Assembly (NCBI GenBank): GCA_900546315.1
Contig: URCP01000004.1
Coordinates: forward strand, 195-64,194
Direction of reading: 5' to 3'
Length of the DNA stretch: 64,000 bases
DNA from: an uncultured Eubacteriales bacterium
GTDB taxonomy: Bacteria; Bacillota; Clostridia; Oscillospirales; CAG-272
Shown: in pieces, positions 1,377 to 45,285 of the stretch
How the letters are laid out: each line of letters begins with the position of its first letter
Numbering within the stretch: position 1 is the stretch's first letter
The notes under the pieces: generated by a model
What the model saw: the letters and a program-made list of their open reading frames with translations, nothing else
The model's database searches: none
Told to the model about the DNA's origin: nothing
Translations under genes and position numbers: made by a program

Positions 1377-1382
1377 GTAGAT

Positions 1383-1672: not shown

Positions 1673-1707
1673 TTTATAAAACAAAGGTTTATACCGGAAT
1701 AAAGTTA

Positions 1708-1797: not shown

Positions 1798-1800
1798 TTA

Positions 1801-1966: not shown

Positions 1967-2000
1967 CGATTTGGTTTGAGCTATTCAGGCGATATCAAGC

Positions 2001-2034
2001 GGTCGGGGCACTTCGTCCCGGCTCTTTTGTTTTT
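2001..2034 (+). terminator. Intrinsic terminator (expression platform of the lysine riboswitch)
   Basis: The GGTCGGGG/TCCCGGCT stem (with G-U pairs) is followed by CTTTTGTTTTT, about 30 nt before the ATG at 2067. Confidence 0.6.
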
Positions 2035-2066
2035 ACTAATAATATCTTTACGGAGGAATTTGTATC

Positions 2067-2942
2067 ATGAAAAAGTTATTATCTGTCGTTTCCGTTATGC
2101 TCGCGGCGGCGTCCGTGTGCGCCTGCGTCTCCTGCGGCGGAAGAACAAAGAAGGATCTCTCGTCCGCAACGTCCCTCGCTGACCTGAACGGCGCCGTGCT
2201 CGGCGCTCAGAACGGTACCTTCCACCTCGAGGCTCTTGATCAGGTCGAGGGCATCGAGAAAAAGAATTACCCGGATTTCACCGATCTTCTCAACGCGCTG
2301 AACTCCGGAGCTATCGACGGTTATGTTGCCGAGGAGCCGACCGCGTATGACGTCTGCTCTAAGGATTCGTCGCTCGCTTTCGTCCCGCTGAAGAACAATG
2401 ACACCGGCTTCACCGCGACCGATGAGGAGACCGGAATCGCCGTCGCGTTCAAGAAGGGCTCCGATATGGTGGCGACCGTTTCCGCGATAATTGACGAGAT
2501 CCCGACCGAGACGAGGCAGGAGCTCATGCGCCAGATCGTCGAGATCAGCGCGAATACCGACGTCGAGTACGCGTCCGCGCTCGCTCTTGAGATTCCGGAG
2601 ACCGACGGCTCGAACGGAACCTTCAAGGTCGCGATGGAGTGCGCTTACTCCCCGTTCAACTGGACTCAGACGACCGACGCCAACGGCGCCGTGCCGATCT
2701 CCGGCAAGGATAACCTCTACGCGAACGGCTACGATGTCGTCGTGGCGCGTTACATAGCGGCAAAGCTCGGCATGACTCTTGAGGTTTACTCCTACGAGTG
2801 GGATTCCCTGATCGCCGCCGTTCAGTCTGGCGCTGTCGACGCTATCGCCGCCGGCATGTCCCCGACAGCCGAGAGAGCGGAGCAGGTCGACTTTACCGAC
2901 TGCTACTACAATTCTAACCTCGTTATCATATACAAGAAGTGA
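2067..2942 (+). CDS. Amino-acid ABC transporter substrate-binding lipoprotein (type II PBP / SBP_bac_3-like) with circularly permuted segment order
   Basis: The signal/lipobox is MKKLLSVVSVMLAAASVCAC. The segment LNGAVLGAQNGT...GAIDGYVAEEP resembles the middle lobe and comes first. The segment FKVAMECAYSPFNW...AIAAGMSPTAERAEQVDFTDCYY resembles the canonical N-terminal lobe and comes last. Confidence 0.8.
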   Translation: MKKLLSVVSVMLAAASVCACVSCGGRTKKDLSSATSLADLNGAVLGAQNGTFHLEALDQVEGIEKKNYPDFTDLLNALNSGAIDGYVAEEPTAYDVCSKDSSLAFVPLKNNDTGFTATDEETGIAVAFKKGSDMVATVSAIIDEIPTETRQELMRQIVEISANTDVEYASALALEIPETDGSNGTFKVAMECAYSPFNWTQTTDANGAVPISGKDNLYANGYDVVVARYIAAKLGMTLEVYSYEWDSLIAAVQSGAVDAIAAGMSPTAERAEQVDFTDCYYNSNLVIIYKK

Positions 2943-3039
2943 TAAAACGGTAGAATAATAAGAATCGTCGCGGTCCGCGCCCGCGGGGCAGGAACCCTGT
3001 GTGACGCGGACCGTGTTTTGACTGAAAGGATTTTTTGGG

Positions 3040-3819
3040 ATGCAATTTTTAAGCGAGGTCATCGGTATTGTCACGAAATACTGGCAGTATCTTCTGTCGG
3101 GTATCGGCTACACGATGCTGATAGCGCTTGTAGGTACGGCGGCGGGCTTTCTGATCGGACTGCTCACCGGCGTGATACGCACAGCTCCGGCGTCGAAGAA
3201 GGCGGCGGTCAGGGTGCTCCACAAGATTGTGAACGCGATAATCGCAGTATATATCGAGATATTCCGCGGCACGCCTATGATGGTTCAGGCGATGGTCATT
3301 TACTGGGGCTACGCCTTCCTGAACGGCGGAAACACGCTTCCGCTGATACCGGCGGGACTTTTCATAGTCTCGATCAATACCGGCGCGTACATGGCGGAGA
3401 TCGTCCGCGGCGGAATAATATCCGTCGACAAGGGGCAGCTCGAGGGCGCGTACTCTCTCGGCATGACCCACTGGCAGTCGATGGTGAAGGTCGTCATCCC
3501 GCAGGTCCTGCGCAATATCCTGCCGTCGATAAGCAATGAGTTCGTCATCAATATCAAGGATACGTCGGTGCTGAACGTCATCGGCGTGACCGAGCTCTAT
3601 TACATGGCGGGCGTCATAAAGAGGATAAATCTTCAGACGTTCCAGACGTATACAGTCATCTGCGTTCTGTATTTCATCCTGACTTTCTCGGTGACAAGGA
3701 TACTCCGCGCGGTCGAGAAGAAGCTCGACGGCTCGGACAACTACACGATATGCGGTTCGGGCTCTGACTCGCAGGCGGAGATACACGTGAAGGCAGAGAC
3801 CGGAAAGGAGATCGATTGA
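3040..3819 (+). CDS. Amino-acid ABC transporter permease (His/Glu/Gln/Arg/opine family)
   Basis: The 259-aa polytopic protein carries the EAA-type loop [26 protein letters not shown] and sits in an operon with an SBP and an ATPase. Confidence 0.9.
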
Positions 3820-3820
3820 A

Positions 3821-4561
3821 ATGTCCGAGATACTGAGACTTGAGCATCTTGAGAAGAGCTTCGGCGACCACAAGGTGCTCCGCGATATAAACATGACCGT
3901 GAACAAGGGCGACGTGATAAGCGTCATCGGCCCGTCCGGCTCCGGAAAGAGCACGATGCTCAGATGCGTGAACCTCCTCGAGGAGCCGACCGGCGGTCGG
4001 ATAGTCTTTGAGGGACGGGACATCATGGAAAAGGAGATGAAGGTCTCCGAGTTCCGCACGAAGGTCGGTATGGTGTTCCAGTCGTTCAACCTGTTCAACA
4101 ACATGAACGCCCTCGCGAACTGTGTCTGTCCGCAGGTGACGGTTTTGAAGCGCCCGAGGGCTGAGGCGGAAAAAATCGCGAGGGAGTACCTGGCAAAGGT
4201 CGGAATGTCGGCTTTCGTGAACGCGAGACCCGCTCAGCTTTCGGGCGGCCAGAAGCAGAGGGTCGCGATAGCCAGATCGCTTTCGATGAACCCGGACGTT
4301 ATCCTGTTCGATGAGCCTACGAGCGCTCTTGACCCGGAGATGGTCGGCGAGGTGCTCGACGTCATGAAGTCGCTCGCGAAGACCGGACTCACGATGATCG
4401 TGGTCACGCATGAGATGAGCTTCGCCCGCGACGTGTCCGACCGCGTAATCTTCATGGACGGCGGTTATATTCTGGAGGACTCGACACCGGCGGAGATATT
4501 CGGAAACCCGAAGGAGCAGAGGACGAGAGAGTTCCTCTCGAGATATCTGGGAAAACAGTGA
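3821..4561 (+). CDS. Amino-acid ABC transporter ATP-binding protein (GlnQ-like)
   Basis: It has Walker [10 protein letters not shown], signature [13 protein letters not shown] and Walker [12 protein letters not shown]. The last 4 codons and the stop lie inside Rep90 copy B. Confidence 0.95.
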
Positions 4562-4639
4562 TTTAAGGTCATTTTCGCAGAAAAAAGCCCATAAATCCAA
4601 GGCTTTTTTCTGCGAAAATCCGAATTGTTCAGTGCTTCC
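4550..4639 (+). repeat. Rep90 copy B
   Basis: The sequence is GGAAAACAGTGATTTAAGGTCATTTTCGCAGAAAAAAGCC-CATAAATCCAA-GGCTTTTTTCTGCGAAAATCCGAATTGTTCAGTGCTTCC. It overlaps the ATPase stop codon at 4559..4561. Confidence 0.85.
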
Positions 4640-4814
4640 CCAGGCGGTTAAGGCAGGCAAAAAATGGCGTGTCCGAAAAACTCAACGTTCCGTTGAGCGA
4701 TAGCTTGCCGACAGGTCGCTTCACGAACGCGGCGGAATATGGTAGAATGTTTATACTCGATAAGGCATGACGCGGTGTCATGCGGATCGGGAAAAAATAA
4801 GTGAGGTAAACGAA

Positions 4815-5687
4815 ATGCTGCCATATGTATTCAGCGCCACGCCGGTCGGACAGACCATACGCAGACTCCGCAAGGAGCGTGGGCTTACACAGGAGGAGCT
4901 CGCGGAGCAGCTCGGTGTGACCGCGCAGGCAGTCTCCAAATGGGAAAACGAGACCGGAATGCCGGACATCTCGCAGATTGTTCCGCTGGCGGGTGTGTTC
5001 GGGGTGAGCACCGATGTGATATTCGGTCTCGATACGACGACCGCCGGCGAGGACGTGGCGAAGATACTCCGCGACGCCGAGGCGGATAAGGTCCGCGGAG
5101 GCGCGGCGTCATATATCAAGGCTTATGACCGGATAAGCGAGGGTCTCCGGAAGTATCCGTGCGATCAGCGGCTGCTTATGAACGGGTTCACGCTCGGGAT
5201 GAGTCTGTGTATGCCCGATTCGGGGTTTTACAGCGCGGAGAGGGCGGAGGAGATCGCGGCACAGCTCGGGAAGGCGTACATCGCGGTCGGAAGAAGCAGT
5301 GATGCCGTTAAGCTGTTCGAGCGGTATTTCGCGGCGATGAAAGTGATATTCGATGGCGAGAGACCGCGTCCTTATCATGATTTCGATTCGGGCGACTGTT
5401 ATCTGCTGCTCGCGAAGGCTTATCTTACACTCGGGGAGAAAGCGAAGGCGATGAAGTGCCTGCGGGATTCCGTAGAGTATTATGTCGGGATGTTTGACAG
5501 AGCCGGCGATGATCCAGTCGATCTGAGGTCCGGGTCGCCGTTCGTCAGCGGAAGTTCGATAAGCCTGCGGCTTGACCGCGAGGTCGCGCGGAGGCGTCTT
5601 GAACGGAAGATTGATTCGGATCTTATCGCGGAGCTTCATGATGAGCCGGGCTTTGACGAAATACGCGGTATGGTCGGAAAGCTCTGA
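4815..5687 (+). CDS. XRE-family HTH transcriptional regulator with helical-repeat (TPR-like) C-terminal domain
   Basis: The HTH reads IRRLRKERGLTQEELAEQLGVTAQAVSKWENETGMPDI. I prefer the start at 4815 (SD gtgagg upstream) over the track start at 4767. Confidence 0.8.
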   Translation: MLPYVFSATPVGQTIRRLRKERGLTQEELAEQLGVTAQAVSKWENETGMPDISQIVPLAGVFGVSTDVIFGLDTTTAGEDVAKILRDAEADKVRGGAASYIKAYDRISEGLRKYPCDQRLLMNGFTLGMSLCMPDSGFYSAERAEEIAAQLGKAYIAVGRSSDAVKLFERYFAAMKVIFDGERPRPYHDFDSGDCYLLLAKAYLTLGEKAKAMKCLRDSVEYYVGMFDRAGDDPVDLRSGSPFVSGSSISLRLDREVARRRLERKIDSDLIAELHDEPGFDEIRGMVGKL

Positions 5688-5729
5688 ACCGGATCCGACG
5701 GATTGTCAGAAAAATAACCGCATAAATAA

Positions 5730-5760
5730 ACCCCCGCTGATTTTTATGGTCAGCGGGGGT
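5730..5760. terminator. Bidirectional hairpin terminator between convergent genes
   Basis: The stem ACCCCCGCTGA/TCAGCGGGGGT has A/T-rich flanks on both sides. Confidence 0.7.
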
Positions 5761-5777
5761 ACTTCATTTAATTGCGG

Positions 5778-7259
5778 TCAGCCCGGGATATCCTCAAGCA
5801 CCGTGTCGTCGAACGCGACCGGATACTTTTCCTTGATTTGCGAGTTGAATTCCGTGAATTTCCCGGATATTATCGAGTCCGCGACGAGCGACTGCCACTG
5901 GTCGAGACCGTCGCCGACGAAGTACATCACGTGGTATCCGTAGGTTGTCTCGACAATCTCCGTGTCGCCCGGCTGGCGGCTCTCGTCGAAGCACCAGTCG
6001 TTGAAGGACGCGACCATTCTGCCCTCGGTGACGTTCTCATAGAGACCGCCGTTGTAGTAGGAACCGGCGTCCGCGGAGTACGCGAGAGCGAGGAGTGCGA
6101 AGCTCTCTTCGGTCATGTTTCCGGACTTCCACTGTTCAAGCAGCTTTTCCGCCTGCGCTTTCGCTTTCTCGGCGCTGCCCCACTCGTCGGATGTGAGGAG
6201 TATGTGTCTTACATTGACCGTGCGCGATTCGTCGCGTACAGGCTCGGACGCGAGCATATAGACGGTGTACTTCGACGAGCCCTCATGCTCGATGACTTTT
6301 GTCTCACCGACGGCAGCTCCGCCGAACGCCCACTCTGAGAACCCGTCGTCGCTCGACGAATAATAAGCGCCGGACGTGAGCCGGTTCTCGAGTGACGTTG
6401 AGATGTCATCCTCATTAGCTTCCGGAGACGCCTCCTTCAGAAGGAGCTTGAGTTCGGTGCGGAAGCGGTTGATTCCGGTCGCCTCGGCGAGCTTGTCGGC
6501 GGACGCCTTTGCGTCTTCCTTTGTGACGATGCCGTCGCCGTCAGTCTCGTTCGACCATGTGAAATCGTAGGAGTAGTAGCTGATAGCCTGATATTTCTCG
6601 GGAGAAGCCTTGTATCCGGCGTCGATCTCATCCTCGGTCGGCGTGAACTCCTCCTGCTTCATGAACTGGTACTTGTAGGCGAGCGCTTCGAGTTTTTTCG
6701 CGTCGAAGATATCGTTCCGCTTCACGCCTCTTCCGTAAAGACCGGTGTCGGTTCTGTCGGAGCGGGTCGATACCGCGTTTACCTCATCGTCGCTCAGCGT
6801 CACTCCGTCCGCATTTGCCGCCTCGTTGAGGGCGAGGATGCCCTCGACGTTCGATTTCGCTCCTGACATGAAATAGTCGAACCACGTCTGACCGTCGGAC
6901 ATCTTCTGCGACTTGAGGCTCAGCGACGTGTCGAGACCGTAATAGGAGACATAGCTGCCGTAGTATTCGATAAATGTATTATAGACGTCGTTGAAGTAAT
7001 AGCTCATGACGGCGCCGTCTACGTCGATATCCGCGGAGCTTGCCGCCGTGCGGTTTCTGAGGTATCCGCCGGAATTCATGCGTATCGAGTACGCGGCGGT
7101 CGCGATTATGACGGCGGCGACGAAGACACCGATCACCGACGACGTGACAATCGCAGTTATTTTTCTGATCTTGCCCTGCTTTTCCGCGTGAGCCTCGCGT
7201 TCGGCGCGGAGCATTTTCTTTTCGGCGTTTGCCGCGCGTGTTCTCTGTGATTTTGACAT
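5778..7259 (-). CDS. Membrane-anchored parvulin-type peptidyl-prolyl isomerase (PrsA/SurA-like)
   Basis: It has an N-terminal TM helix (ITAIVTSSVIGVFVAAVIIATAAY) and a C-terminal PpiC domain (VRHILL...GGLYENV...YGYHVMYF). Confidence 0.85.
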   Translation of the reverse strand: MSKSQRTRAANAEKKMLRAEREAHAEKQGKIRKITAIVTSSVIGVFVAAVIIATAAYSIRMNSGGYLRNRTAASSADIDVDGAVMSYYFNDVYNTFIEYYGSYVSYYGLDTSLSLKSQKMSDGQTWFDYFMSGAKSNVEGILALNEAANADGVTLSDDEVNAVSTRSDRTDTGLYGRGVKRNDIFDAKKLEALAYKYQFMKQEEFTPTEDEIDAGYKASPEKYQAISYYSYDFTWSNETDGDGIVTKEDAKASADKLAEATGINRFRTELKLLLKEASPEANEDDISTSLENRLTSGAYYSSSDDGFSEWAFGGAAVGETKVIEHEGSSKYTVYMLASEPVRDESRTVNVRHILLTSDEWGSAEKAKAQAEKLLEQWKSGNMTEESFALLALAYSADAGSYYNGGLYENVTEGRMVASFNDWCFDESRQPGDTEIVETTYGYHVMYFVGDGLDQWQSLVADSIISGKFTEFNSQIKEKYPVAFDDTVLEDIPG

Positions 7260-7438
7260 TGCGTTACTTCCTTTACTCTGAATTTGCGCTGGGATGTTTT
7301 CATATATTATAGCACGTATATGTGCCGGAAAACTGAAGATTGTGTGAACACTTCCTGATTATTCGCGCGGACCGGAATAAAAACGCGGCGTTCGGCAATA
7401 ATCCCGGACAGAGTACTGATTGTTCTGGAGGGCGGAGA

Positions 7439-8548
7439 ATGGAAAAGCGGCGTGCGTTCATTGTGAACACGGTATCGGTTCTGCTCGTGTGCGGGATCGT
7501 ATATCTTTTCTTCAAATACGCGATATTCGTCGTCATGCCGTTTCTTGTCGGATTCGCGGCGGCGGCGCTCGTCGAGCCGGTCGTGCGGTTCCTGTCGCAA
7601 AGGTTCGGGATGAAGCGCAGACCGTGCGGGATAATGCTGCTACTGATCTTCTACGCGACGATCGGGATGCTGTTCACTTTTCTGTCGGTGCGGCTCGCCG
7701 TCGTTGTCGGGCGGTGGTCGGATTCTCTGCCGACGCTTTATAAAAACTCGATAGAACCGTCGCTGAATATTCTTTTCGGGAAGGTAAGCGACCTGACAGA
7801 GCGCATTGACGGTATTTTCGGCGGTCCGGACGCCGAGTATATTTCCGCCGGGATATCGGGGCTGCTGTCGTCTCTCGAGGGGTCTATCGGCACGGCTGTG
7901 TCGGAGCTTTCGGTGAAGCTGCTGTCGAAGCTCTCCGCGTTCGCGGCGTCGGTGCCGGGCGTCCTTGTCGGGATGGTCTTCGCGGTGATATCGAGCTTTT
8001 TCTTCACTATCGACTACGAGAAGATAATCGGTTTTCTGAAGGAGAATCTGCCGGAGGGCGCGGTTCGGACGCTTTCCGGGATAAGATCGGGATTTGTCCA
8101 TACATCCGGGAGATATCTGCGTTCCTACGCGCTGATACTCCTCATAACCTTCGCGGAGCTCGCGCTCGGGCTGACGATTGTCGGCGCACAGAGACCGCTC
8201 GCGGCGGCTCTCGGCATCGCGCTGTTCGATATCCTGCCGGTCTTCGGGACGGGCGGGATAATGGTCCCGTGGGCTGTGATACGGGCGCTCGGCGGAGACT
8301 GGGGCTTTGCCGTCGGACTTATTGTCGTGTGGGTCGTCATATCGGTAGTTCGGAACATAATCGAGCCGAAGATCGTCGGAAGTCAGGTCGGACTGCATCC
8401 GCTCGTGACGCTGATTGCGATGTTTGTCGGAACGAAGCTGTTCGGGCTCACCGGTCTCTTTCTACTTCCGGTAAGTCTCGCGATAGTTATCCCGCTCCTG
8501 CGCGGCAGGACGTCCGGGGGCACGGAAGGCGCGGCGCAAAAAAAATGA
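7439..8548 (+). CDS. AI-2E family transporter / sporulation integral membrane protein YtvI-like
   Basis: The polytopic protein reads MEKRRAFIVNTVSVLLV... with the AI-2E-like C-terminal core IIEPKIVGSQVGLHPLVTLIAMFVG. SD ggaggg precedes the ATG at 7439. Confidence 0.75.
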   Translation: MEKRRAFIVNTVSVLLVCGIVYLFFKYAIFVVMPFLVGFAAAALVEPVVRFLSQRFGMKRRPCGIMLLLIFYATIGMLFTFLSVRLAVVVGRWSDSLPTLYKNSIEPSLNILFGKVSDLTERIDGIFGGPDAEYISAGISGLLSSLEGSIGTAVSELSVKLLSKLSAFAASVPGVLVGMVFAVISSFFFTIDYEKIIGFLKENLPEGAVRTLSGIRSGFVHTSGRYLRSYALILLITFAELALGLTIVGAQRPLAAALGIALFDILPVFGTGGIMVPWAVIRALGGDWGFAVGLIVVWVVISVVRNIIEPKIVGSQVGLHPLVTLIAMFVGTKLFGLTGLFLLPVSLAIVIPLLRGRTSGGTEGAAQKK

Positions 8549-8568
8549 GGAAATTCACGCTGTCTGTC

Positions 8569-8597
8569 TTGACGTTTCGGGGAAAATCTGGTATAAT
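8569..8597 (+). promoter_or_regulatory. Promoter TTGACG-17-TATAAT for the alpha-galactosidase gene
   Basis: The sequence is TTGACGtttcggggaaaatctggTATAAT. Confidence 0.55.
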
Positions 8598-8653
8598 AAC
8601 AGGTATACGGTCTGATAAACACAGATACCGAATCATGAAAGGAACTCTTAGTA

Positions 8654-10855
8654 ATGCCTGTAATTTTCGACAGCGAAAAGAAAATCTTCAAGCTCGACAC
8701 ACACTCGTCGAGCTACATATTCGAGGTGAGCCCGACAGGGTATCTTCTCCACCTCTACTACGGCGCGTACGTGCCGGACACCGACCTTGATTATCTCCGT
8801 ATGCGCCTTGGCAACGCGTCTTTCAGCGCGAACGTCATAGCTCCGGAGGAGCACGGTCTGTCGCTTGACACGGCGGCGGTCGAGTATCCGGTGAACGGCA
8901 CCGGCGATTTCCGCGTCTCTGCCCTGTCTGTACGCGGCGAGAACGGAAACAGCGCCACCGACATCCGCTATAAGTCGCACAGAATATACGTCGGCAAGCC
9001 GAAGCTCGCCGGTCTCCCCGCGACCTACACGAACGATGACTCCGAGGCTGAGACGCTTGAGATCACCTGCCTCGACTCCCTCACCGGAGCAGAGGTGACT
9101 CTCATCTACACCGCCTTCGCGAAGCTTGACGCGATCACGAGAAGCGTCAGGGTGAAGAACATATCGGACAAGAAGTTTAAGCTCGACCGCATCCATTCCG
9201 CGTGCGTCGATTTCACCGGCATGGATTTCGAGATGCTTCACCTTCAGGGCCGCTGGGCAAAGGAGCGCACGCTCGTCAAGCGCCATCTTGAGTTCGGTCT
9301 TCAGGGGATACACTCGAAGCGCGGTTCCTCGAGCCACAACAACAATCCCTTCGTCGCCCTCGCGCGGGACGGATACACCGAGGAGAGCGGCGAGGTCTAC
9401 GGTTTCTCGCTCGTCTACTCGGGCAACTTCGCCGCCGAGATCGAGGTCGACTGCATGGCGTCCACGCGCATTCTCATGGGTCTGAATCCTGAGGATTTCG
9501 GATGGACTCTCGAGGCGGGCGAGGAGTTCCAGTCGCCTGAGGTCGTCATGGTCTTCTCGGAGAACGGCGTCGGCGGCATGAGCCGCACCTTCCATAAGCT
9601 CTACAGGCACAATCTCTGCCGCGGCGAGTGGAAGACGAAGAAGCGCCCGATACTCGTAAATAACTGGGAGGGCACGTATTTCGATTTCGACGACGACAAG
9701 CTCGTCGCGATAGCGAAGGACGCCGCCGATCTCGGAATCGAGATGCTCGTAATGGACGACGGCTGGTTCGGCGTGAGAAACACCGACAACTGCTCGCTCG
9801 GCGACTGGTACGTCAACGAGAAGAAGCTCCGCGGCGGACTTCGGAGCCTTGTCGACAGAGTGAACGCTCTCGGTCTGAAATTCGGCATCTGGTTCGAGCC
9901 GGAGATGATTTCGCCGGACAGCGACCTTTACCGCGCTCATCCGGACTGGTGCCTGCACGTGAACGGCCGCGAGCGCTCCGAGGGACGCCGTCAGCTCGTT
10001 CTTGATATGTCGAGAAAAGATGTCCGGGACAATATATTCGACCAGATGTCGGCGATTCTTTCGAGCGCGAACATCGAGTATGTCAAGTGGGACTTCAACC
10101 GCAACCTGACCGAGGTCGGAAGCGAGCTTCTTCCGCCGGAGAGGCAGTGCGAGACGGCGCACAGATATATGCTCGGCGTTTATGAGCTGCTTGAGAGACT
10201 TCTGACCGCGTTCCCGCGTCTGCTTCTCGAGGGATGCTCCGGCGGAGGCGGACGCTTTGACGCCGGAATGCTCTACTACAGCCCGCAGATCTGGACGAGC
10301 GACGACACCGACGCCATGGAGCGCCTTGAGATCCAGTACGGCACGTCGATGGTCTATCCGCCCTCCTCGATGAGCGCTCACGTTTCCGCGGTGCCGAATC
10401 ACCAGACCGGACGCGTGACTTCCTTCAGAACCCGCGGCGATGTAGCTATGGCGGGAGCGTTCGGCTATGAGCTCGACCTCACGAAGCTGACAGACGAGGA
10501 GCGCGAGCTTGTGAGACAACAGGTCGCCGATTATCATAAGTACTACGATCTCATCCAGAATGGTGATTATTACCGCCTGATCAACCCGACCGAGGACAAG
10601 GCGAAGATAACCTGCGCCGCGGCGTGGGAGTCTGTATCGGAAGACAAGCGCGAGGTTCTCGTGACATATGTTGTCATCCGTACGCAGGCTCATGTGGCGC
10701 GCTATCTGAGGCTCCGCGGGCTTGATCCGGACAGGATCTATGTTTCGGACGACGGAAAGCGCTATTCCGGCGCGCTGCTGATGAACGCCGGGCTCAACCT
10801 GACCGGCGGCTGGAGAGACGGCGAGAGCCGCGTCATTCATTTCACGGCTGAGTGA
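8654..10855 (+). CDS. Alpha-galactosidase, glycoside hydrolase family 36
   Basis: The 733-aa protein has GH36 hallmarks KWDFNR and EGCSGGGGRFD, plus FVMDDGWF-like VMDDGWFG. Confidence 0.9.
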   Translation: MPVIFDSEKKIFKLDTHSSSYIFEVSPTGYLLHLYYGAYVPDTDLDYLRMRLGNASFSANVIAPEEHGLSLDTAAVEYPVNGTGDFRVSALSVRGENGNSATDIRYKSHRIYVGKPKLAGLPATYTNDDSEAETLEITCLDSLTGAEVTLIYTAFAKLDAITRSVRVKNISDKKFKLDRIHSACVDFTGMDFEMLHLQGRWAKERTLVKRHLEFGLQGIHSKRGSSSHNNNPFVALARDGYTEESGEVYGFSLVYSGNFAAEIEVDCMASTRILMGLNPEDFGWTLEAGEEFQSPEVVMVFSENGVGGMSRTFHKLYRHNLCRGEWKTKKRPILVNNWEGTYFDFDDDKLVAIAKDAADLGIEMLVMDDGWFGVRNTDNCSLGDWYVNEKKLRGGLRSLVDRVNALGLKFGIWFEPEMISPDSDLYRAHPDWCLHVNGRERSEGRRQLVLDMSRKDVRDNIFDQMSAILSSANIEYVKWDFNRNLTEVGSELLPPERQCETAHRYMLGVYELLERLLTAFPRLLLEGCSGGGGRFDAGMLYYSPQIWTSDDTDAMERLEIQYGTSMVYPPSSMSAHVSAVPNHQTGRVTSFRTRGDVAMAGAFGYELDLTKLTDEERELVRQQVADYHKYYDLIQNGDYYRLINPTEDKAKITCAAAWESVSEDKREVLVTYVVIRTQAHVARYLRLRGLDPDRIYVSDDGKRYSGALLMNAGLNLTGGWRDGESRVIHFTAE

Positions 10856-10929
10856 GACAGGTCACGGGGATGCCCCTTCTGAGGCGTCCCCGTTTCTGAT
10901 TTACCGCTGATATGTTCAGGAGGCAGGAT

Positions 10930-11793
10930 ATGACAAAGCAACCAGAGAAATATTCGATAGATGATTTCGGTACCGGGAGCATAGCTATAAGGCACAAGCT
11001 GATAGATCGTGACTACAGGCAGCACTGGCACGAGTGCTGTGAGCTTGAGATGATCCTGTCCGGGCGGGGCAGCCAGATTCTCAACGGCGTAGGCTATCCG
11101 CTTTCAAAGGGGGAGATTTATATGCTGACCCCAGCGGACTGTCACTCGATACACGTTGATGAACCGCTCGATATAATCGGAATCATGTTCGACGAGAGGA
11201 TGATAACTCCTTCGGTCTATGAGCAGATACTGACGCATGAGACTATGGGCGCGAATCTGACCGCGAATTTTGCCGGGCGCAGCTTCACTGCCGCGAAGGC
11301 TCTGCTGGACGCGCTCATCGCCGGGACACAGGATACCGCCGTGCCGGACGGAAATGAGTATATGTATATGTGCCATATAATCGACTGTCTTCTGATTCAG
11401 CTGCTGCGCTGCTTCCGGTCGGATGGGAGGAAGGCGGGGAAGTCGCCGGTCGGCACGGCGATACTGTACCTTCACAGCCATTATATGGAAGACCTGACGC
11501 TTGACGAGGTCGCGGGGATAACGCATCTGAGCCGGAATTATTTCTCCGAACTGTTCCGCGAGTCGACCGGAAAGACCTTCAAGAGTTATCTCATCGACCT
11601 CAGGATGCGCGCGGCGTGCAGGATGCTGGCAAACAGTGATATGTCGGTAACGGATATCTGCTTTGCCTGCGGTTTTGAGTCTTTCTCGAACTTCATGCGC
11701 ACCTTCAAGTCGCGTTTCGGGGTGAGTCCGCTGAAATTCCGCCAGGATAACCGCGGCAGACCGTGCGTTTCTGGGGAGAGGCAGCTGCAATGA
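10930..11793 (+). CDS. AraC family transcriptional regulator (cupin sensor plus HTH)
   Basis: The C-terminal AraC HTH reads LTLDEVAGITHLSRNYFSELFRESTGKTFKSYLIDLRMRAACRML. SD aggagg lies 6 nt before the ATG at 10930; the track start is 10912. Confidence 0.85.
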   Translation: MTKQPEKYSIDDFGTGSIAIRHKLIDRDYRQHWHECCELEMILSGRGSQILNGVGYPLSKGEIYMLTPADCHSIHVDEPLDIIGIMFDERMITPSVYEQILTHETMGANLTANFAGRSFTAAKALLDALIAGTQDTAVPDGNEYMYMCHIIDCLLIQLLRCFRSDGRKAGKSPVGTAILYLHSHYMEDLTLDEVAGITHLSRNYFSELFRESTGKTFKSYLIDLRMRAACRMLANSDMSVTDICFACGFESFSNFMRTFKSRFGVSPLKFRQDNRGRPCVSGERQLQ

Positions 11794-11937
11794 CAGGCCG
11801 ATCTTATCTATCCGAAAAAACGCAATAATATAGTTATAAAACGAGACATCATGACCTGATAAATAGTGTATAATATACACAGGGACACGCTGAATAAGTT
11901 ATATTTCCGCGGATACGGCGGTGTCCTCAGAAATAAA

Positions 11938-12027
11938 GGAAACACTGATTCAAGGTTGTCTTCACGGAAAAATACCCATGAATCGAAGCCCTTTTTCTGT
12001 GAAAAATCCGGGTTGCTCAGTGTATCC
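11938..12027 (+). repeat. Rep90 copy C
   Basis: The sequence GGAAACACTGATTCAAGG...CTCAGTGTATCC ends 24 nt before the downstream SBP start region. Confidence 0.85.
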
Positions 12028-12056
12028 TGAAGAACAATAAAGGAAGGGTCATGGTT

Positions 12057-13544
12057 ATGAGCAGGATTCAATCTGGTAGGGTAACGGCGATAATTCTTCT
12101 GGCGTCGTTTCTTATGTCATGCGGAGGAAAAGCGGGAGTAGAGAAGGAAACATCCGGCGCTGACAGCCGGGCTCAGGAAAGCACGGAGACTGCCGCCGTC
12201 GCTGAAGAGTATGTCTATCCCGACAAGAGCTACGGCGGCTATGAGTTCCGGATACTCAATTTCAACGAGTTCTGGAGCTGTTATGTGCGTGTGGACATCA
12301 CGGAGCAGACCGGCGAGGTGGTCGACGACGCGGTGTGGAAGAGAAACCGCGGGATTGAGGACAGGTTCGATATACATATCAGTGAGATCACGGAGGCGTT
12401 CAATGACGGAGGCAACGCCACGGGTGTCACGAAGCTGCTGAGCAGCGCGGTCATGGCGGGGGACGACGCGTATGACGCGGCGTTTCTTCCGATATCCTAC
12501 GCGCCCGGCGTCATTACAGAGGGAAGCCTTGTGGATCTCGGCAGTATCCCGGAGATCAACCTTGACAAGGATTGGTGGGATAACGTGCTCAATTCCGAAA
12601 TGTGGCTGAACGGAAAGCTCTACGCCGCCGCCACGCCTCTTCAGCTTACGTCGCTCGATCTTACATGGGTGCTGCTGTTCAACAAGGATATGCTGAACTC
12701 ATACGGTCTTGAGTATCCGTACGATACGGTGCGCGAAGGCAAGTGGACAATGGACGAGATGAACACGTATCTGACGAAGATCACGAATCTCAACGGCGAC
12801 GACTCGTTCAAGTACAACGAAAAAGGCAACGCCGTATACGGCATCGCGGGACACGACACAGGAAGCTATATGTTCCTGGTTGGCGGCGGTGAGTATTTCA
12901 TAAAGCATGACGATACTGGAAATCTGGTGTATGAGAGTCCGGATGACCGGTTTTACGAGGTTATAACCAAGGTCGCGGAGGTGTACTCGGCGAAGGATGG
13001 CAAGGTTCTGGTAAATTCGAATGACAAGTTCACCGACGCGGGCGGGTACTACAATCTGTTCTACTCGGGGAGAGCGGGCTTCCTTACGACCGAGCTCAAG
13101 GGCGCGAAGGTCATGCGGAGCCTTGAGACGGATTACGGCATACTTCCGTCTCCGAAATTCGACTTGAATCAGGAGAATTATATAACCTATGCCAGCGAGA
13201 ATATCGTGCGCTGCACGGTTCCGGTCACTGTGAGCGATCTGTCGCGTACCGGCGTGATCCTTGACGCGCTGTCCTATGAGAGCTATCGGGATGTCCTGCC
13301 GCTTTATTACGGGCAGACGATCTCTCAGAAGGGACTGAGGGACGAGGATTCGATTGAGATGCTGAGTATCATAAACGAGACGAGAGTCAGCGAGTCGGGT
13401 CTCATATTCGGCGTGACGTCCGGGCTCGTGAACGCGCTGAAATCCTCGATAAAGGACGGAAAGGACGATTACGCGTCGGTGGTCGCGAAGAACGAGGAGA
13501 GCGTCAGACAGAAGCTGACGAAGCTGCTCGAATCGATTGAATGA
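12057..13544 (+). CDS. Extracellular solute-binding lipoprotein (sugar-type ABC SBP, family 1-like), with no adjacent permease
   Basis: The lipobox is LLASFLMSCGG. It is a paralog of 15682..17166 (YGGYEFRILNF / YGGYTVRVLMR; DKDWWDN / DKPWWDQ). An alternative start lies at 12051. Confidence 0.75.
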   Translation: MSRIQSGRVTAIILLASFLMSCGGKAGVEKETSGADSRAQESTETAAVAEEYVYPDKSYGGYEFRILNFNEFWSCYVRVDITEQTGEVVDDAVWKRNRGIEDRFDIHISEITEAFNDGGNATGVTKLLSSAVMAGDDAYDAAFLPISYAPGVITEGSLVDLGSIPEINLDKDWWDNVLNSEMWLNGKLYAAATPLQLTSLDLTWVLLFNKDMLNSYGLEYPYDTVREGKWTMDEMNTYLTKITNLNGDDSFKYNEKGNAVYGIAGHDTGSYMFLVGGGEYFIKHDDTGNLVYESPDDRFYEVITKVAEVYSAKDGKVLVNSNDKFTDAGGYYNLFYSGRAGFLTTELKGAKVMRSLETDYGILPSPKFDLNQENYITYASENIVRCTVPVTVSDLSRTGVILDALSYESYRDVLPLYYGQTISQKGLRDEDSIEMLSIINETRVSESGLIFGVTSGLVNALKSSIKDGKDDYASVVAKNEESVRQKLTKLLESIE

Positions 13545-19854: not shown

Positions 19855-19891
19855 AGTTATATTATATCCTTTCATTTATTAGATATAGATT

Positions 19892-19920
19892 ATTATACCT
19901 TATTTTGCGCGCTCTGTCAA
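19892..19920 (-). promoter_or_regulatory. Promoter TTGACA-17-TATAAT for proS
   Basis: The minus strand reads TTGACAgagcgcgcaaaataaggTATAAT. The leader is too short for a T-box. Confidence 0.6.
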
Positions 19921-20071
19921 TATCCGATTGAAATAATTTTCGAAAAATCCGGAAAAATTCCGCCGCGCGGCAAAATGTTTACGCATACTGCTTTACTTTT
20001 TGCCCGTAATGTGATAAAATAGATGTGTGTGGTCAAAAATGACCGAGTAAAAAAGTGAGCGGGGGGAGCAT

Positions 20072-20656
20072 ATGCAGAGCGGCCGGTCGCGAGGACAGAC
20101 AAATGAATATCGACAGCCGGAGACCGACAGGTACGGACGCCCCGACGTGTACGGACACCCGCTGCCGGGAAACGCCGCGCGGCAGTCCCCACAGGCGATA
20201 CGGCGCGACAGACCTCAGGGCGCGGTACCTCCGCGTGACGCCGGGTATCAGCGCGCTCCGCAGTCCGGACAGCGCCAGACGACGCGTGCCGGTCAGCAGC
20301 AGCCGGACAGGCGCTCTCTCGCTGTATCCTACAGCAGCGTGAGGCAGAACGGCTCCGGACAGAGGATGAACGTCGCCCCGATGAATATTCAGCGCGTACA
20401 GCCTGTCTCACGCGGACAGAACGCGTCGGGCGGCGCTTATCAGGGGAGACCCCGGATACAGACGCGCGGAACGTATCCGCCGCAGAAAAGACCCATCGGA
20501 GGGAACCGCAAAGTGAATCAGATGGTTAAAGGAAAAGCAAAAAAGAAGAACCGCACCACAATACGCGATTTCGTGCTCGGGCTCGCGATAGGCTTCGCGA
20601 TATTCGGTCCGGCGGCGTATTTTGTGTGCAAGACGATAATCGGCATATTCGCCTGA
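20072..20656 (+). CDS. Hypothetical tail-anchored membrane protein with R/Q/P/G-rich disordered N-terminal region
   Basis: SD gggggag precedes the ATG. A single C-terminal TM helix (FVLGLAIGFAIFGPAAYFVCKTIIGIF) follows a KKKNR cluster. I recognise no domain. Confidence 0.5.
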   Translation: MQSGRSRGQTNEYRQPETDRYGRPDVYGHPLPGNAARQSPQAIRRDRPQGAVPPRDAGYQRAPQSGQRQTTRAGQQQPDRRSLAVSYSSVRQNGSGQRMNVAPMNIQRVQPVSRGQNASGGAYQGRPRIQTRGTYPPQKRPIGGNRKVNQMVKGKAKKKNRTTIRDFVLGLAIGFAIFGPAAYFVCKTIIGIFA

Positions 20657-20661
20657 GACGA

Positions 20662-20800
20662 GCCTGAAAATAAATTTTCAGACCAGACAGTTTTGAGGCT
20701 TTCACGACATTGGGTCGTGAATTTTGAAAGACGGACAAGCCGTCTTTCAAAACCGCCTCAAAACTGTAAGTTTGTACGAAAGGCATGGACATACAAATGA
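20662..20800 (+). repeat. Rep109 copy 1 (109-nt structured core 20662..20770 plus a 30-nt 3' module shared with copy 2)
   Basis: The sequence runs gCCTGAAAATAAATTTTCAGAC...CAGTTTTGAGGC..TCACGAC..GTCGTGA..TTTGAAAGACGG..CCGTCTTTCAAA..GCCTCAAAACTG-TAAG. It starts 6 nt after the stop at 20656. Confidence 0.85.
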
Positions 20801-21507
20801 GACTTGACAAATTTTTGTCCGAGACCGGAACGTGTACGCGCTCCGAGGCGTCAAAGGCGGCGAAATCGGGTGGAATAACCGTGAACGGCGTGCCGGTGAA
20901 GCGCGCCGACGTCCACATCGACCCGGAAAAGGACGCGGTATCGCTGTCCGGAGTTCCGGTCAGATATAAGAGATTCACGTATATCATGCTCAACAAGCCG
21001 GACGGGTATATCTCGGCGACCGAGGATTCCCGCGGGGAGCACACGGTGCTTGAGCTTCTCGACGAGCGCACCCGCCGCCTCGGGCTTTTCCCGTGCGGAA
21101 GACTCGACAAGAATACGCTCGGGCTGCTTCTGCTGACGAACGACGGCGACCTCTGTCACGATCTGCTTTCGCCGAAGAAGCACGTGTCGAAGGTCTACCG
21201 TTTCCGCTCGGAGCGAGTGATAACCGACGAGGACAAGGCGCGTCTCGAGTCCGGAGTGACGCTTGACGGCGAGATGACGAAGCCCGCGAAGCTGACGCTT
21301 GACGAGGGGCGGTGCTCAGGGACGATAGAGATAACCGAGGGAAGGTTCCACCAGATAAAGCGTATGCTCGAGGCCGTTTGCAACAAGATAGAATATCTCG
21401 AGCGTGTTGAGTTCGCGGGAATGCCGCTCGACACATCGCTTGAGCGCGGAGAGTGGCGCGAGCTGACACCGGACGAGGAGAAGGCGCTTCTCCTGCTCAA
21501 AAAATAA
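20797..21507 (+). CDS. Pseudouridine synthase, RsuA/RluB family (S4 domain plus catalytic domain)
   Basis: The protein reads MRLDKFLSETGTCTRSEASKAAKSGGITVNG with the catalytic motif GRLDKNTLGLLLLTNDG. The track start at 20785 lies in repeat-derived sequence. Confidence 0.85.
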   Translation: MRLDKFLSETGTCTRSEASKAAKSGGITVNGVPVKRADVHIDPEKDAVSLSGVPVRYKRFTYIMLNKPDGYISATEDSRGEHTVLELLDERTRRLGLFPCGRLDKNTLGLLLLTNDGDLCHDLLSPKKHVSKVYRFRSERVITDEDKARLESGVTLDGEMTKPAKLTLDEGRCSGTIEITEGRFHQIKRMLEAVCNKIEYLERVEFAGMPLDTSLERGEWRELTPDEEKALLLLKK

Positions 21508-23747: not shown

Positions 23748-24707
23748 TTGAAAAGACATGACGACAACAGCCGCCCGCGTGTGCCGAAGAAGCTGTCGGC
23801 GCTGATAACGTCGATAGTGTGCGTCGCGGCGGCGCTCTTCTACATAGTGACAGGCGGGAATCTCGGGGATTTCCTCGAGAAGAACGGCATTGACATAAAC
23901 GATCTCTGGAAGAACACCGCGACGGTCACTGACGGAGAGCTTGAGGTACACGTAATAGATATCGGGCAGGGCGACAGCATCCTTGTCAGGTGGAACGGCG
24001 GAAATATGCTGATCGACGCGGGACCGAACTCGGGCGAGGACGCGCTGAGGGCGCACCTTGACGCCTGCGGGGTGAAGAAGCTTGATTATCTCGTCTGCAC
24101 TCACCCGCACGAGGATCACATCGGCGGCGCCGACATGGTCGTGAAGAACTATGAGATCGGGAAGATTCTCATGCCGGTGACGAGCGTTTCCACGGCGACC
24201 GTGAACCGGCTGCTCGACGCAATCGAGGAAAAGGACGTATCCGTAGAGGCTCCGGCGCCGGGCGACGTCTACATTCTCGGCGACGTCTCATTCGAGATAC
24301 TCGCCCCCGACCCGTCTGTCGAGGACGACGCGAACAACTCGAGCATAGTCCTGCGCCTGCGCTTCGGCGATACATATTTCATGTTCACAGGCGACGCGGA
24401 GAAGGAGTCGGAGGCGAAGATACTTGAGAGCTTTCCCGAGAGCGACCTGAAGAGCGACTTTCTGAAGGTAGGTCACCACGGCTCAAGCACTTCGACGAGC
24501 GAGGCGTTCCTCGCCGCCGTCTCGCCCGAATACGCCGCGATATCCTGTGAGAAGGGAAACAGCTACGGACACCCGCACCGCGAGACGATAGCCGTACTGA
24601 AAAAGTACGGAATAACCGGGGACAGACTGCTTCGTACCGACATATCCGGAACGATAGTGGTGGTCTCCGACGGTCAGACGCTGTCAGTCGGCTCAAGCGG
24701 AAACTAA
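23748..24707 (+). CDS. MBL-fold metallo-hydrolase, ComEC C-terminal-domain-like, with N-terminal membrane anchor
   Basis: The motifs VHVIDIGQGDSILV, CTHPHEDHIGG and VGHHGS are present. The start is TTG with SD ggagg. Confidence 0.8.
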   Translation: MKRHDDNSRPRVPKKLSALITSIVCVAAALFYIVTGGNLGDFLEKNGIDINDLWKNTATVTDGELEVHVIDIGQGDSILVRWNGGNMLIDAGPNSGEDALRAHLDACGVKKLDYLVCTHPHEDHIGGADMVVKNYEIGKILMPVTSVSTATVNRLLDAIEEKDVSVEAPAPGDVYILGDVSFEILAPDPSVEDDANNSSIVLRLRFGDTYFMFTGDAEKESEAKILESFPESDLKSDFLKVGHHGSSTSTSEAFLAAVSPEYAAISCEKGNSYGHPHRETIAVLKKYGITGDRLLRTDISGTIVVVSDGQTLSVGSSGN

Positions 24708-24710
24708 AAA

Positions 24711-24849
24711 GTCTGAAAATAAATTTTCAGACCAAACAGTTTTGAGGCTTTCACGACATTGGGTCGTGAATTTTGAAAGCCGGACAAGCCGTCTTTCAAA
24801 ACCGCCGCAAAACTGTAAGTCAGTACGAAAGATATGGTCATAAAAATGA
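24711..24849 (+). repeat. Rep109 copy 2
   Basis: It is nearly identical to copy 1 across the 109-nt core (24711..24819) and the 3' module. It starts 4 nt after the stop at 24707. Confidence 0.85.
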
Positions 24850-24890
24850 ATCACCGTAACGGAATCGTGTGTTCCGTTACGGTGATTCTG

Positions 24891-27419: not shown

Positions 27420-27595
27420 ATTGCTTCTCCGGAAAAATAGATCTGATATGAAATGAATCTCATATATATAATATCATAACACATCCGGAGAAAAAAATCA
27501 ATCACCTAATTGAAAATATCTGTCGAAATATATTGTTTTCCTTCGAGGACGGCTTTGCGCGTCTTACCAAAATTTTAGAAAAATTATATTTATTC

Positions 27596-28984: not shown

Positions 28985-28990
28985 AAGTAT

Positions 28991-29019
28991 ATTATACCAC
29001 ATCCCGCGCGAAATTGCAA
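28991..29019 (-). promoter_or_regulatory. Promoter TTGCAA-17-TATAAT for rplS
   Basis: The minus strand reads TTGCAAtttcgcgcgggatgtggTATAAT. Confidence 0.6.
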
Positions 29020-29155
29020 TAGCTTTTTCAAAAAAAATCCCGCCGGTTAGAGAAAAATCCGATTTTTTCCCCGCGCGCCGGCGGAATCGAAAAAACGACG
29101 AAAAACATGTGTGGAAAACGCGTAAATATTATAATAAATTAATTCGCTAAAGTAC

Positions 29156-31956: not shown

Positions 31957-31962
31957 CTCTTT

Positions 31963-31991
31963 ATTATACCACATTCAGAGCCGTTTGTCAA
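31963..31991 (-). promoter_or_regulatory. Promoter TTGACA-17-TATAAT for the rplU operon
   Basis: The minus strand reads TTGACAaacggctctgaatgtggTATAAT. Confidence 0.6.
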
Positions 31992-32044
31992 GAGCTTTCA
32001 TGTAAAAATCTCAGCTCTGTCCGGCATTTTTTCGCAAACAATGA

Positions 32045-34902: not shown

Positions 34903-35167
34903 ATATTCTTTTTCCTCCCAAGGATTGTTTCGCGTCGGGACGGTGATGTCCCTGCCGCGTGATAATATGATATCATATTCGCGGAGAAAACGCAATAGTT
35001 TTGGGACATATGTCATCAAACTGTAAGCTACGTTCACTGCCAATTTATATTATTTGCATAATAATCCAATCCTGAATGAATAATATGGTACATCAGACGT
35101 AATATGTAAAAAAACACATTCTCTCCGGAAATGATAGCTGATATCCTGAACTCCGCGCCGGAGAACG

Positions 35168-37337: not shown

Positions 37338-37533
37338 TTCGAATCTTCCTTCGTCACGACAGAGTGCCACGACCGGTACGCCGGAGGTGTCCTTATACAT
37401 CATACCACTTTCCGGCAGATTTTTCAACAGCGTCGCGAGATAATTTATAAAAGAGTCACTTATTTATAACAAATCGTATTTTTTCTGACAGGCTCCGCCG
37501 GGAAACGCTTCCACGCGCTGATACGCTGAAGCG

Positions 37534-44100: not shown

Positions 44101-44982
44101 ATGAAGAATATCGGTATCTATTCTAACGCGGATAAGGACAAGGATTTCGCCGGGACCGCGGCGGTGATAGGCGCTCTCGGCGCGATAAGGCTGACGCGTG
44201 ACGGCGTCGGGGTGTTCATGGATATTTCGCAGGAGTGCGCGGTGAGGGATACTCTCGGTGAGGACGCCGTCAGAGACGTCGTTTTTCTCCCGGAGTGTGA
44301 GATGACGAGGACGATTGACGTAATGATAGTCCTCGGCGGAGACGGAACGCTTCTCAAGGCGGCGAGACGCTGTTCGCCGGCGGGGATACCCCTGCTCGGG
44401 ATAAACCTCGGGCGGGTCGGGTATATGGCGGAGCTCGAGATAAACGAGCTTCATATGCTCGGGAGGCTGATTGACGGCAATTATAATGTCGAGAGTCGGA
44501 TGATGCTCGACGCGGCGATACCCGGAAAGTCCGGAATGTTCGCGCTGAACGACGCCGTGCTCGGCGCGGAGTCGGTGTTCAGGATGGTCGATATAGAGCT
44601 CTGCTGCGACGGGAAGATTGTCAACCACTACAGGTGCGACGGGCTCATCGTCTCGACTCCTACCGGATCTACCGCGTATTCGCTGTCCGCGGGAGGACCT
44701 GTCATCGACCCGTGCATGGACGCCATCGCGGTGACGCCGGTCTGCGCCCACTCGCTGTCGGCGGCGCCTATCGTCTTTTCGGCGTCATCGGTGCTTGAGG
44801 TGCGGAACCTCTCGAAGAGGTCTCCGGAGATGTACCTGTCGCTCGACGGCTCCGAGATGTTCCGTGTAGGCTACGGGGAGAGCGTCAGGATAACGAAGTC
44901 GCCGCTGTCCTGCGGTTTCGTGAGATTGAAGGATGGAGGCTTCTACGAGGTGCTGCGCCGTAAGATGGCGGAGAGCATATAG
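44101..44982 (+). CDS. nadK: NAD kinase
   Basis: The motifs GGDGTLL and VSTPTGSTAYSLSAGGP are present. Confidence 0.92.
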   Translation: MKNIGIYSNADKDKDFAGTAAVIGALGAIRLTRDGVGVFMDISQECAVRDTLGEDAVRDVVFLPECEMTRTIDVMIVLGGDGTLLKAARRCSPAGIPLLGINLGRVGYMAELEINELHMLGRLIDGNYNVESRMMLDAAIPGKSGMFALNDAVLGAESVFRMVDIELCCDGKIVNHYRCDGLIVSTPTGSTAYSLSAGGPVIDPCMDAIAVTPVCAHSLSAAPIVFSASSVLEVRNLSKRSPEMYLSLDGSEMFRVGYGESVRITKSPLSCGFVRLKDGGFYEVLRRKMAESI

Positions 44983-45090
44983 TCTGAAAACAAGTTTTCA
45001 GACCAAACAGTTTTGAGGCTTTCACGACGTAGGGGCGTGAATTTTGAAAGCCGGACAAGCCGTCTTTCAAAACCGCCTCAAAACCGTAAG
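44982..45090 (+). repeat. Rep109 copy 3 (core only)
   Basis: The first base is the last base of the nadK stop codon. The core is conserved, with a few substitutions in helices 1 and 3. Confidence 0.85.
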
Positions 45091-45285
45091 ATAGCTATGA
45101 AAAACGGTCCCGCTCGGGACTACTTACATACGAAAGAGAGATTTGAAATGGCAGAAAACGAAGAAGTTCTCGAAACGGCGGAGTCCGATGGGGATGCGGC
45201 GCGCGGAGGCACGCCGGAGGCACCGTCTCCGGAATCGCGCTCCGGAAGACGCCGTCCGACGGAGAACGAGCGCGGAGGGATACTT

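Follow-up and report, generated by a model that had tools for sequence, protein, structure and literature searches.

A probable non-autonomous interspersed repeat of about 137 nt with a putative portable ribosome-binding site in an uncultured gut bacterium of the Eubacteriales

The stretch of 64,000 nt analysed here (hereafter the window; contig URCP01000004.1 of assembly GCA_900546315.1, positions 195 to 64,194, from an uncultured Eubacteriales bacterium) carries three near-identical copies of a 109-nt sequence, Rep109, at 20662-20770, 24711-24819 and 44982-45090, all on the + strand, as the first-pass annotation had reported. An invariant sub-motif of 21 nt and another of 29 nt are each found three times and no more in the window, always on the + strand, vs 0 occurrences expected from 100 shuffles. 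Each copy begins close to a stop codon, and this part of the earlier description also stands: copy 1 starts 5 nt past the TGA (20654-20656) of a hypothetical gene and precedes the gene for an rsuA-like pseudouridine synthase, copy 2 starts 3 nt past the TAA (24705-24707) of the gene for an MBL-fold protein and faces a convergent DUF5722 gene, and copy 3 overlaps the TAG (44980-44982) of nadK and lies upstream of argR. Scanning the whole window against Rfam 15, we found only a lysine riboswitch (RF00168, 94 bits) above its gathering threshold, at 1797-1970 (+), upstream of the gene for an amino-acid ABC-transporter binding protein (2067-2942). In a permissive scan, the best Rfam match to copy 1 reached 18 bits against a threshold of 40 bits, which agrees with the proposal of a structured multi-copy element outside the known RNA families. 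Loose direct repeats of 37 nt, beginning with TATTATACCACAT, are also present in the window (19891-19927, 27472-27508, 28990-29026, 31962-31998, 34966-35002 and 37398-37434). On the minus strand they read ATGTGGTATAATA and resemble an extended -10 box, so that they probably represent minus-strand promoters and not a repeat element.

RNAfold predicts the same architecture for all three copies, a 5′ hairpin (H1) followed by a closing helix around two hairpins, with energies of -43 to -53 kcal/mol and z-scores of -5.7 to -9.8; 0 shuffles folded as well. The helices proposed in the first-pass annotation were reproduced in this way. The additional pair ascribed to the CAAG loop of copy 3 is absent from the predicted fold, as it would leave an impossible loop of 2 nt. 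Being made of palindromes, the element folds with similar stability on the reverse strand (z-scores of -6.6 to -9.6), and the fold is therefore uninformative as to which strand matters. The 3′ arm of the second inner hairpin, GCCGTCTTTCAAA (20735-20748; present in all copies), begins with the seven bases GCCGTCT, which match the core of the Neisseria DNA-uptake sequence GCCGTCTGAA; this likeness is most likely a coincidence.

Both an alignment and a repeat finder (family D1, 140 nt) place the end of similarity about 30 nt beyond the 109-nt end, at 20800 and 24849, and the A of AGTCTG, one base before the reported start, is probably the first base of the unit. In full, the unit measures about 137 nt. 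H1 is followed by a palindromic core with a three-way junction and then by a tail (GTACGAAAGGYATGGTCATAAAA) that is mostly single-stranded and abuts an ATG; written out, the order is A-GTCTGAAAA-TAAA-TTTTCAGAC for H1, then a short linker, the core, the tail TAAGTTTGTACGAAAGGYATGGTCATAAAA and the ATG. The originally delimited 109 nt omit the 3′ tail with its GAAAGG motif and ATG. The features of the three window copies are compiled in Table 1.

Table 1. Coordinates of the repeat copies, their parts and an adjacent terminator in the window
Feature	Position	Strand	Basis or remark
Copy 1, full element (AGCCTG...GGACATACAA)	20661..20796	+	nhmmer 20662-20804, 163 bits
H1 hairpin of copy 1, GCCTGAAAA/TTTTCAGAC	20662..20683	+	fold
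Three-way-junction palindromic core of copy 1	20687..20767	+	fold
3′ tail of copy 1	20768..20799	+	Shine-Dalgarno motif GAAAGG at 20778-20783
Copy 2, full element	24710..24848	+	3 nt past the stop of the MBL-fold gene
Terminator hairpin of the convergent DUF5722 gene	24848..24888	-	outside the repeat
Copy 3	44981..45101	+	HMM positions 1-120; first two bases within the nadK stop TAG

Copy 1 occupies the entire gap between the hypothetical gene and the rsuA-like gene. Its core consists of the closing helix CAGTTTTGAGGC/GCCTCAAAACTG around the hairpins TTCACGAC/GTCGTGAA and TTTTGAAAGACGG/CCGTCTTTCAAAA, and its tail contains two ATGs, the first at 20785-20787 and the second at 20797-20799, which is the start codon of the rsuA-like gene. 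Internal mismatches are present in copies 2 and 3. No co-oriented gene lies behind copy 2, the Shine-Dalgarno motif in its tail is degenerate (GAAAGA at 24827-24832), and the A-run of this tail (TCATAAAAAT) is the reverse complement of the U-tract of the DUF5722 terminator. Copy 3 has an intact H1 and core and a truncated or diverged tail; behind it, argR (ATG at 45148) retains its own Shine-Dalgarno sequence, GAAAGAGAG, at ~45133-45141. A terminator-like hairpin on the minus strand follows copy 3 as well (45107-45120, -), at a place where there is no minus-strand gene.

A metagenome scan yielded 34 human-gut loci, 20 of which came from a single assembly, ORIC01, and an nhmmer profile detected 60 copies in the window and all collected loci together. 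From a collection of species-representative genomes, two short contigs were recovered, belonging to two different Hadza gut MAGs labelled uncultured Eubacteriales; locus L002 (second species, CAKSOR01) originates from a different GTDB representative MAG, which places the element in a second species-level MAG, too. Neither an exact-pattern scan of viral contigs nor blastn searches against phage and plasmid collections returned a match. Contig L082 is 95.6-98% identical to positions 1-12687 of the window, and in its part just upstream of the window it matches the ORIC01 contig L016 at 98% identity; based on these identities, the ORIC01 organism is the window's own species. Within this species we count about 27 distinct sites: 23 belong to ORIC01, three to the window, and one lies 4.2 kb before the first base of the window. 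In every conspecific contig fetched, the three window copies were present, and their fixation in all strains sampled suggests that current activity is low. In the nearest other species (RsuA 78%, NadK 63-64% identical), the element is absent from the junctions of the hypothetical gene with rsuA and of nadK with argR, and no copy was found in ~25 kb of their sequence. These empty sites were considered as markers of the element's junctions and proved too diverged to define them.

Several copies differ from the full unit by whole modules. Three short forms (L001, L031 and L034) lack the second inner hairpin and have a perfect 21-bp hairpin as their core, and from the copy shared by L016 and L082 the same hairpin is cleanly excised. 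In two mini forms, H1 is fused straight to the tail and the three-way-junction core is absent. One old copy in front of a gene has a decayed core and no H1, with the tail intact. This set of variants identifies H1 and the tail as modules that persist in the mini forms, and the tail is the sole module retained in all gene-proximal variants.

The constant sense orientation that had been noted for the three copies extends to the whole collection: ~27 of 27 sites in the one species are sense with respect to the flanking genes. A Pfam check identified real genes in 10 of 10 upstream and 10 of 10 downstream ORFs. The upstream genes encode PurA, FtsH, RlmL, TilS, CinA and others, the downstream genes RecG, PncB, PurH, RNase III, glycosidases, regulators and a tyrosine recombinase, with no common function among the latter. 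The first-pass annotation had seen the defining link in the upstream stop codon; across the sites, however, the association is with the downstream start codon. A long ORF starts exactly at the tail-end ATG at 17 of ~25 assessable sites, including copy 1 (ATG at 20797), and many copies follow a promoter and a host Shine-Dalgarno sequence instead of a stop. At most sites a Shine-Dalgarno-like motif (e.g., GAAAGGAG, GGAGG or GAGGTG) is found 3-7 nt before the first base of the element, often with a TATAAT box ~25 nt further upstream. For the 18 nt upstream of the element, the median energy of the anti-Shine-Dalgarno duplex is -6.4 kcal/mol vs -3.35 kcal/mol in control windows (p = 4.6e-6). This orphan host Shine-Dalgarno sequence argues that the element typically separates the start codon of a gene from the ribosome-binding site that originally served it. 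All other sites are located after a stop codon, followed either by a convergent gene (copy 2 and others; ~5-6 sites) or by a next gene with its own Shine-Dalgarno sequence. Copy 3 in front of argR is a case of the latter, and a relative with a compact nadK-argR junction of 23 nt has the same AGAGAGG-type motif before argR.

These data bear on the earlier suggestion that the element acts as RNA in the 3′ UTR of the upstream gene, be it as stabiliser, processing site, terminator, insulator or small RNA. Such a role would fit the three window copies and ~15 other sites that start 0-13 nt after a co-oriented stop codon, the ~5-6 convergent-gene sites, at which the 5′ end lies 1-3 nt from the stop of the co-oriented gene, and the great stability of the folds. 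However, ~10 sites follow a promoter and a 5′ leader and not a stop codon, and no terminator-like or U-tract site was detected on the sense strand of any of the three copies, the terminator-like matches being located on the minus strand or outside the repeat. Where the element lies at the 3′ end of a gene, a separate canonical terminator follows it. The mini forms without the three-way junction, the conservation of a tail that forms a start-codon-proximal putative ribosome-binding site and the pattern of pair changes described below, with no covariation and as many G-U as A-C states, also count against this function. The 3′-UTR role of the original proposal thus receives partial support at most, and we consider it improbable.

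The evidence from the tail points in a different direction. GAAAGG is the usual Shine-Dalgarno motif of this genome, located 8-13 nt before the ATG at element-free genes, with a mode of 10; in the tail it stands 13 nt before the ATG of the gene, which is within the natural range, at its long end. Partition-function folds leave the tail motif unpaired with a mean probability of 0.64, vs 0.24 for the element body. Among copies that abut a gene, ~24 of 25 have kept the GG of the motif (manual count), but it is mutated in five of nine copies without a gene at the tail (GAAAGA in copy 2 and L016, GAAAGC in L018b, GAAAAA in L032, and copy 3). Such conservation near genes and decay elsewhere would be predicted for a motif under selection only at the places of its use. 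From these sequence patterns we infer that the tail may drive initiation at the downstream gene. The long spacing weakens this reading, as does an additional ATG that follows GAAAGG at a distance of 1 nt and in most cases shares the frame of the real start. A consensus scan of the three copies detected no sigma-70-like promoter on the sense strand. Altogether, we consider it probable that Rep109 makes up three-quarters, at the 5′ end, of an interspersed repeat that is non-autonomous, has a length of about 137 nt and would carry a portable ribosome-binding site.

The presence of two ATGs also has consequences for annotation. Gene callers use the first ATG of the tail, which adds four N-terminal residues (MDIQ or MVIK) to the database proteins of copy-bearing loci, for instance 240 vs 236 aa for the rsuA-like protein behind copy 1 and 396 vs 392 aa for another protein (P0001 and P0135). 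This extension is a systematic annotation artefact, and two of the affected proteins are cluster representatives with more than 200 member sequences each.

To judge whether the fold itself is under selection, we used 33 distinct ungapped copies with a mean identity of 96%. The covariation check called for in the first-pass annotation yielded a single double change among 43 predicted pairs of these 96% identical copies. It is a U-A to C-G replacement at pair 2-21 of H1, found at the copy 1 locus of other strains and hence in one locus lineage; the window strain has a C.A mismatch at this pair vs C-G in those strains. The variant pair states comprise 8 G-U, 8 A-C and 15 other mismatches, and neither the compensation nor the excess of G-U expected under selection on a sense RNA fold was found in this set. 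The claim that differences between copies fall mostly in loops or extend pairing is borne out only in that stems have an about twofold lower density of variants than loops, and most stem variants among the 33 copies break pairs. At 96% identity, both the covariation and the strand-asymmetry test are uninformative, and the helices, which may or may not serve as functional RNA structure, are a property of a young or homogenised palindromic repeat.

Within the copy 1 locus, most strains read GCCTG...CAGGC and share two other derived bases. The window strain reads GCCTG...CAGAC, has consensus-like bases at three positions, and its short flanks read identical to those of other strains (L037, L038, L044 and L046-L048). 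Gene conversion from another copy, or a collapse of reads, could account for these sequence differences.

Could the copies instead be a shared cis-regulatory leader, similar to Neisseria REP2/CREN, that places at least 17 unrelated genes under one post-transcriptional regulator, such as RNase III, an RNA-binding protein or a small RNA? Common regulation would then be the reason why copies are maintained and kept similar, and it would agree with the presence of the same leader directly upstream of many genes, with the retention of H1 and tail in the mini forms and with the lower variant density in stems. The perfect 21-bp hairpin of the short forms has the size of an RNase III substrate, one copy precedes an RNase III gene, and L001/L031 as well as copy 1 show differences within the element between identical short flanks, compatible with gene conversion. 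However, the downstream genes (RecG, PncB, PurH, glycosidases, a recombinase and regulators) are functionally incoherent, some copies have no following gene, upstream of one gene a decayed core is tolerated, one site is occupied in some strains and empty in others, and covariation is lacking in the 33 copies. We regard common regulation of this kind as rather unlikely.

In L024 (5537-6397), the RNase III (rnc) gene has a copy of the repeat as its leader, a single case. The long helices of the repeat resemble RNase III substrates, and the rnc gene of Escherichia coli regulates itself via a leader hairpin.

The first-pass annotation had favoured an RNA-level role over DNA mobility. This contrast is mistaken: one site is filled or empty among conspecific strains, and relatives are without the element at orthologous junctions. 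At the polymorphic site, L082 and L016 carry the element right after the stop codon of a glycoside hydrolase gene, and L083 is empty. With slashes at the junctions, the filled allele reads TAA/AGTCTG...GAAAGACATGGG/CATAAAAAGG, with CATGGG at the junction, and the empty allele TAA/CATGAAAAAGG. According to this pair, the unit begins with the A of AGTCTG, and its right junction lies before CAT if an indel of 1 nt is allowed. No target-site duplication, that is no repeat of at least 2 nt, is present at this single filled/empty site. On the right side, either the unit ends with ...ATGGN and inserts beside a CATRAAAA-like sequence, or the junction formed within microhomology. CATAAAA occurs in most tails at a fixed distance of 4 nt from the ATG, which argues that it belongs to the repeat. 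As a sufficient target, CATAAAA was rejected, with 44 of 62 such heptamers in 335 kb unoccupied.

In its small size, lack of coding capacity, multiple copies and presence/absence polymorphism, the element shares the traits of MITEs. Its ends (5′ AGTCTGAAAA, 3′ GGTCATAAAA) are not complementary, and the inverted arms of 12 bp lie inside the unit; an ordinary MITE is excluded by this lack of inverted repeats at the termini and of a duplication at the single site, and the classical DDE-derived type was rejected on the same grounds. In agreement with the earlier statement that no transposase is present, none was seen nearby, and no transposase family was represented among the called genes of the fetched loci (~0.5 Mb).

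A different mode of transposition, in which an IS200/IS605-type HUH transposase moves the element as single-stranded DNA in the manner of PATEs, would derive the orientation from the mechanism and not from selection. Points in its favour are that terminal inverted repeats are absent, that the polymorphic site shows no target duplication, that hairpins lie at or near the ends, that insertion is polar and that both strands fold equally. Nevertheless, the left flanks (AGAA, GCAA, ACAA, GAAA, TAAA, AATA, ACCA, ATAG and ATAC) contain no conserved target of 4-5 nt, with only the A at -1 conserved, H1 is formed by the very first bases and is not subterminal, and no transposase is represented among the called genes of the fetched loci. 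A replication-strand bias is missing as well: GC skew in the orientation of the element is positive for 14 and negative for 11 of 25 locus copies, although skew over 5-14 kb is noisy. The window represents the leading strand. The split of 14 vs 11 indicates that orientation follows genes and not replication, and we judge movement by such a transposase to be very improbable.

Returning to the portable ribosome-binding site, a plausible account is as follows. The element lies in transcribed spacers, right after a stop codon or a host Shine-Dalgarno sequence and usually 4 nt before the start codon or including it. Insertion would displace the original Shine-Dalgarno sequence by ~135 nt, and GAAAGG in the tail would keep the downstream gene translatable. 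Antisense insertions at such sites would abolish translation and be lost, so that only sense copies would survive. The strict sense orientation may thus be the outcome of a survival filter. Such a filter accounts for the orientation at gene starts, but not fully for the polarity at the ~5-6 convergent-gene sites; there it leaves orientation free, and the polarity suggests an insertion step that is intrinsically polar. In addition, the co-transcribed hairpins may well affect the processing or stability of the mRNA, by analogy to the action of RNase III at Correia elements, the transcribed hairpins of which can be RNase III targets (PMC3049150).

A bolder version of this scenario would be a self-propagating translation-initiation cassette, with an insertion machinery aimed between the Shine-Dalgarno sequence (or stop codon) and the start codon, in the direction of transcription and without duplication, which at the same time would create a post-transcriptional regulon of dozens of genes, for instance under RNase III. 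We consider it quite unlikely; if true, it would represent a mode of targeting that is undescribed for any known transposase or recombinase.

Locus L035 (148-3538, -) contains three consecutive tyrosine-recombinase genes (416, 328 and 349 aa) resembling a recombinase-in-trio arrangement, with a copy of the repeat between the second and the third and a BRO/KilAC antirepressor gene nearby. This context indicates that the repeat also lands within other mobile DNA.

Furthermore, some low-coverage assemblies (L045, 1-3215; L010, L014, L025, L027 and L030 compared with ORIC01) have identical upstream flanks and different downstream genes across the repeat. L045, for example, joins a phage-capsid locus, as found in L021, to the rsuA gene of the window, both of which are loci of one genome. 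At the one site tested, all contigs of 150-350 kb have the same arrangement. The idea that copies serve as recombination sites that shuffle promoters or genes was rejected, since L045 and the long contigs indicate mostly chimeric low-coverage contigs. The mixed flanks are most likely repeat-induced assembly chimeras; real inversions between copies may occur.

Several implications follow for this common uncultured gut species. A selfish repeat can occupy the gap between the Shine-Dalgarno sequence and the start codon, the most sensitive bases of a gene, and this occupation would be tolerated because the repeat brings its own putative ribosome-binding site. In doing so, it rewires the 5′ leaders of many housekeeping genes, and its copies break and mis-join metagenome assemblies. 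The family also provides a natural system in which to study the effect of strong upstream RNA structure and of a displaced Shine-Dalgarno sequence on translation initiation in Clostridia.

The repeat with its putative portable ribosome-binding site is a new family within a known kind of small bacterial repeat. Its unusual features are a precise location directly before the start codon, a sense orientation at 100% of the sites and the insertion without target duplication. The closest known elements are Neisseria REP2 and the MIRUs, which are functional analogues and not homologues. REP2 has 120-150 bp, ~25 copies per genome and no terminal inverted repeats, and like the element described here it combines internal inverted repeats, forming stem-loops in its 5′ part, with a ribosome-binding site as well as an ATG fused to diverse ORFs; inverted-repeat sequences on Borrelia plasmids have been grouped with it as similar. 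Unlike REP2, which carries a promoter and belongs to a co-regulated gene set, the present element has no promoter-like site on the sense strand, many of its copies are situated in operons or behind a host promoter and Shine-Dalgarno sequence, and its genes are functionally incoherent. The phylum harbouring REP2 is unrelated to that of our host, and the likeness is an analogy between descriptions, not homology.

MIRUs, too, are intercistronic, co-transcribed and oriented as the flanking genes, and they are said to insert at start codons while preserving translation. However, they keep translation going by an internal small ORF coupled through a 4-nt overlap, whereas the present element would use a Shine-Dalgarno motif. 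A coupled ORF of the MIRU type was considered for our repeat and rejected: one frame is open, but it lacks a start codon at the 5′ junction, and the distances to the upstream stop fall in all three phases. In addition, MIRUs measure 40-100 bp, are often arranged in tandem and have short direct repeats at filled sites, in contrast to a single unit of ~137 nt without duplication. BOX, RUP, SPRITE and Correia elements resemble the present element in being small, modular, hairpin-forming and co-transcribed, with modules that can be present or absent, as is the case for boxB. They differ by their terminal inverted repeats and the lack of a strict orientation, and BOX, RUP and Correia elements also by target duplications. 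Whereas these elements are enriched between convergent genes and SPRITE is terminator-like, the repeat described here is ~100% sense, lacks a U-tract and has most of its copies at gene starts.
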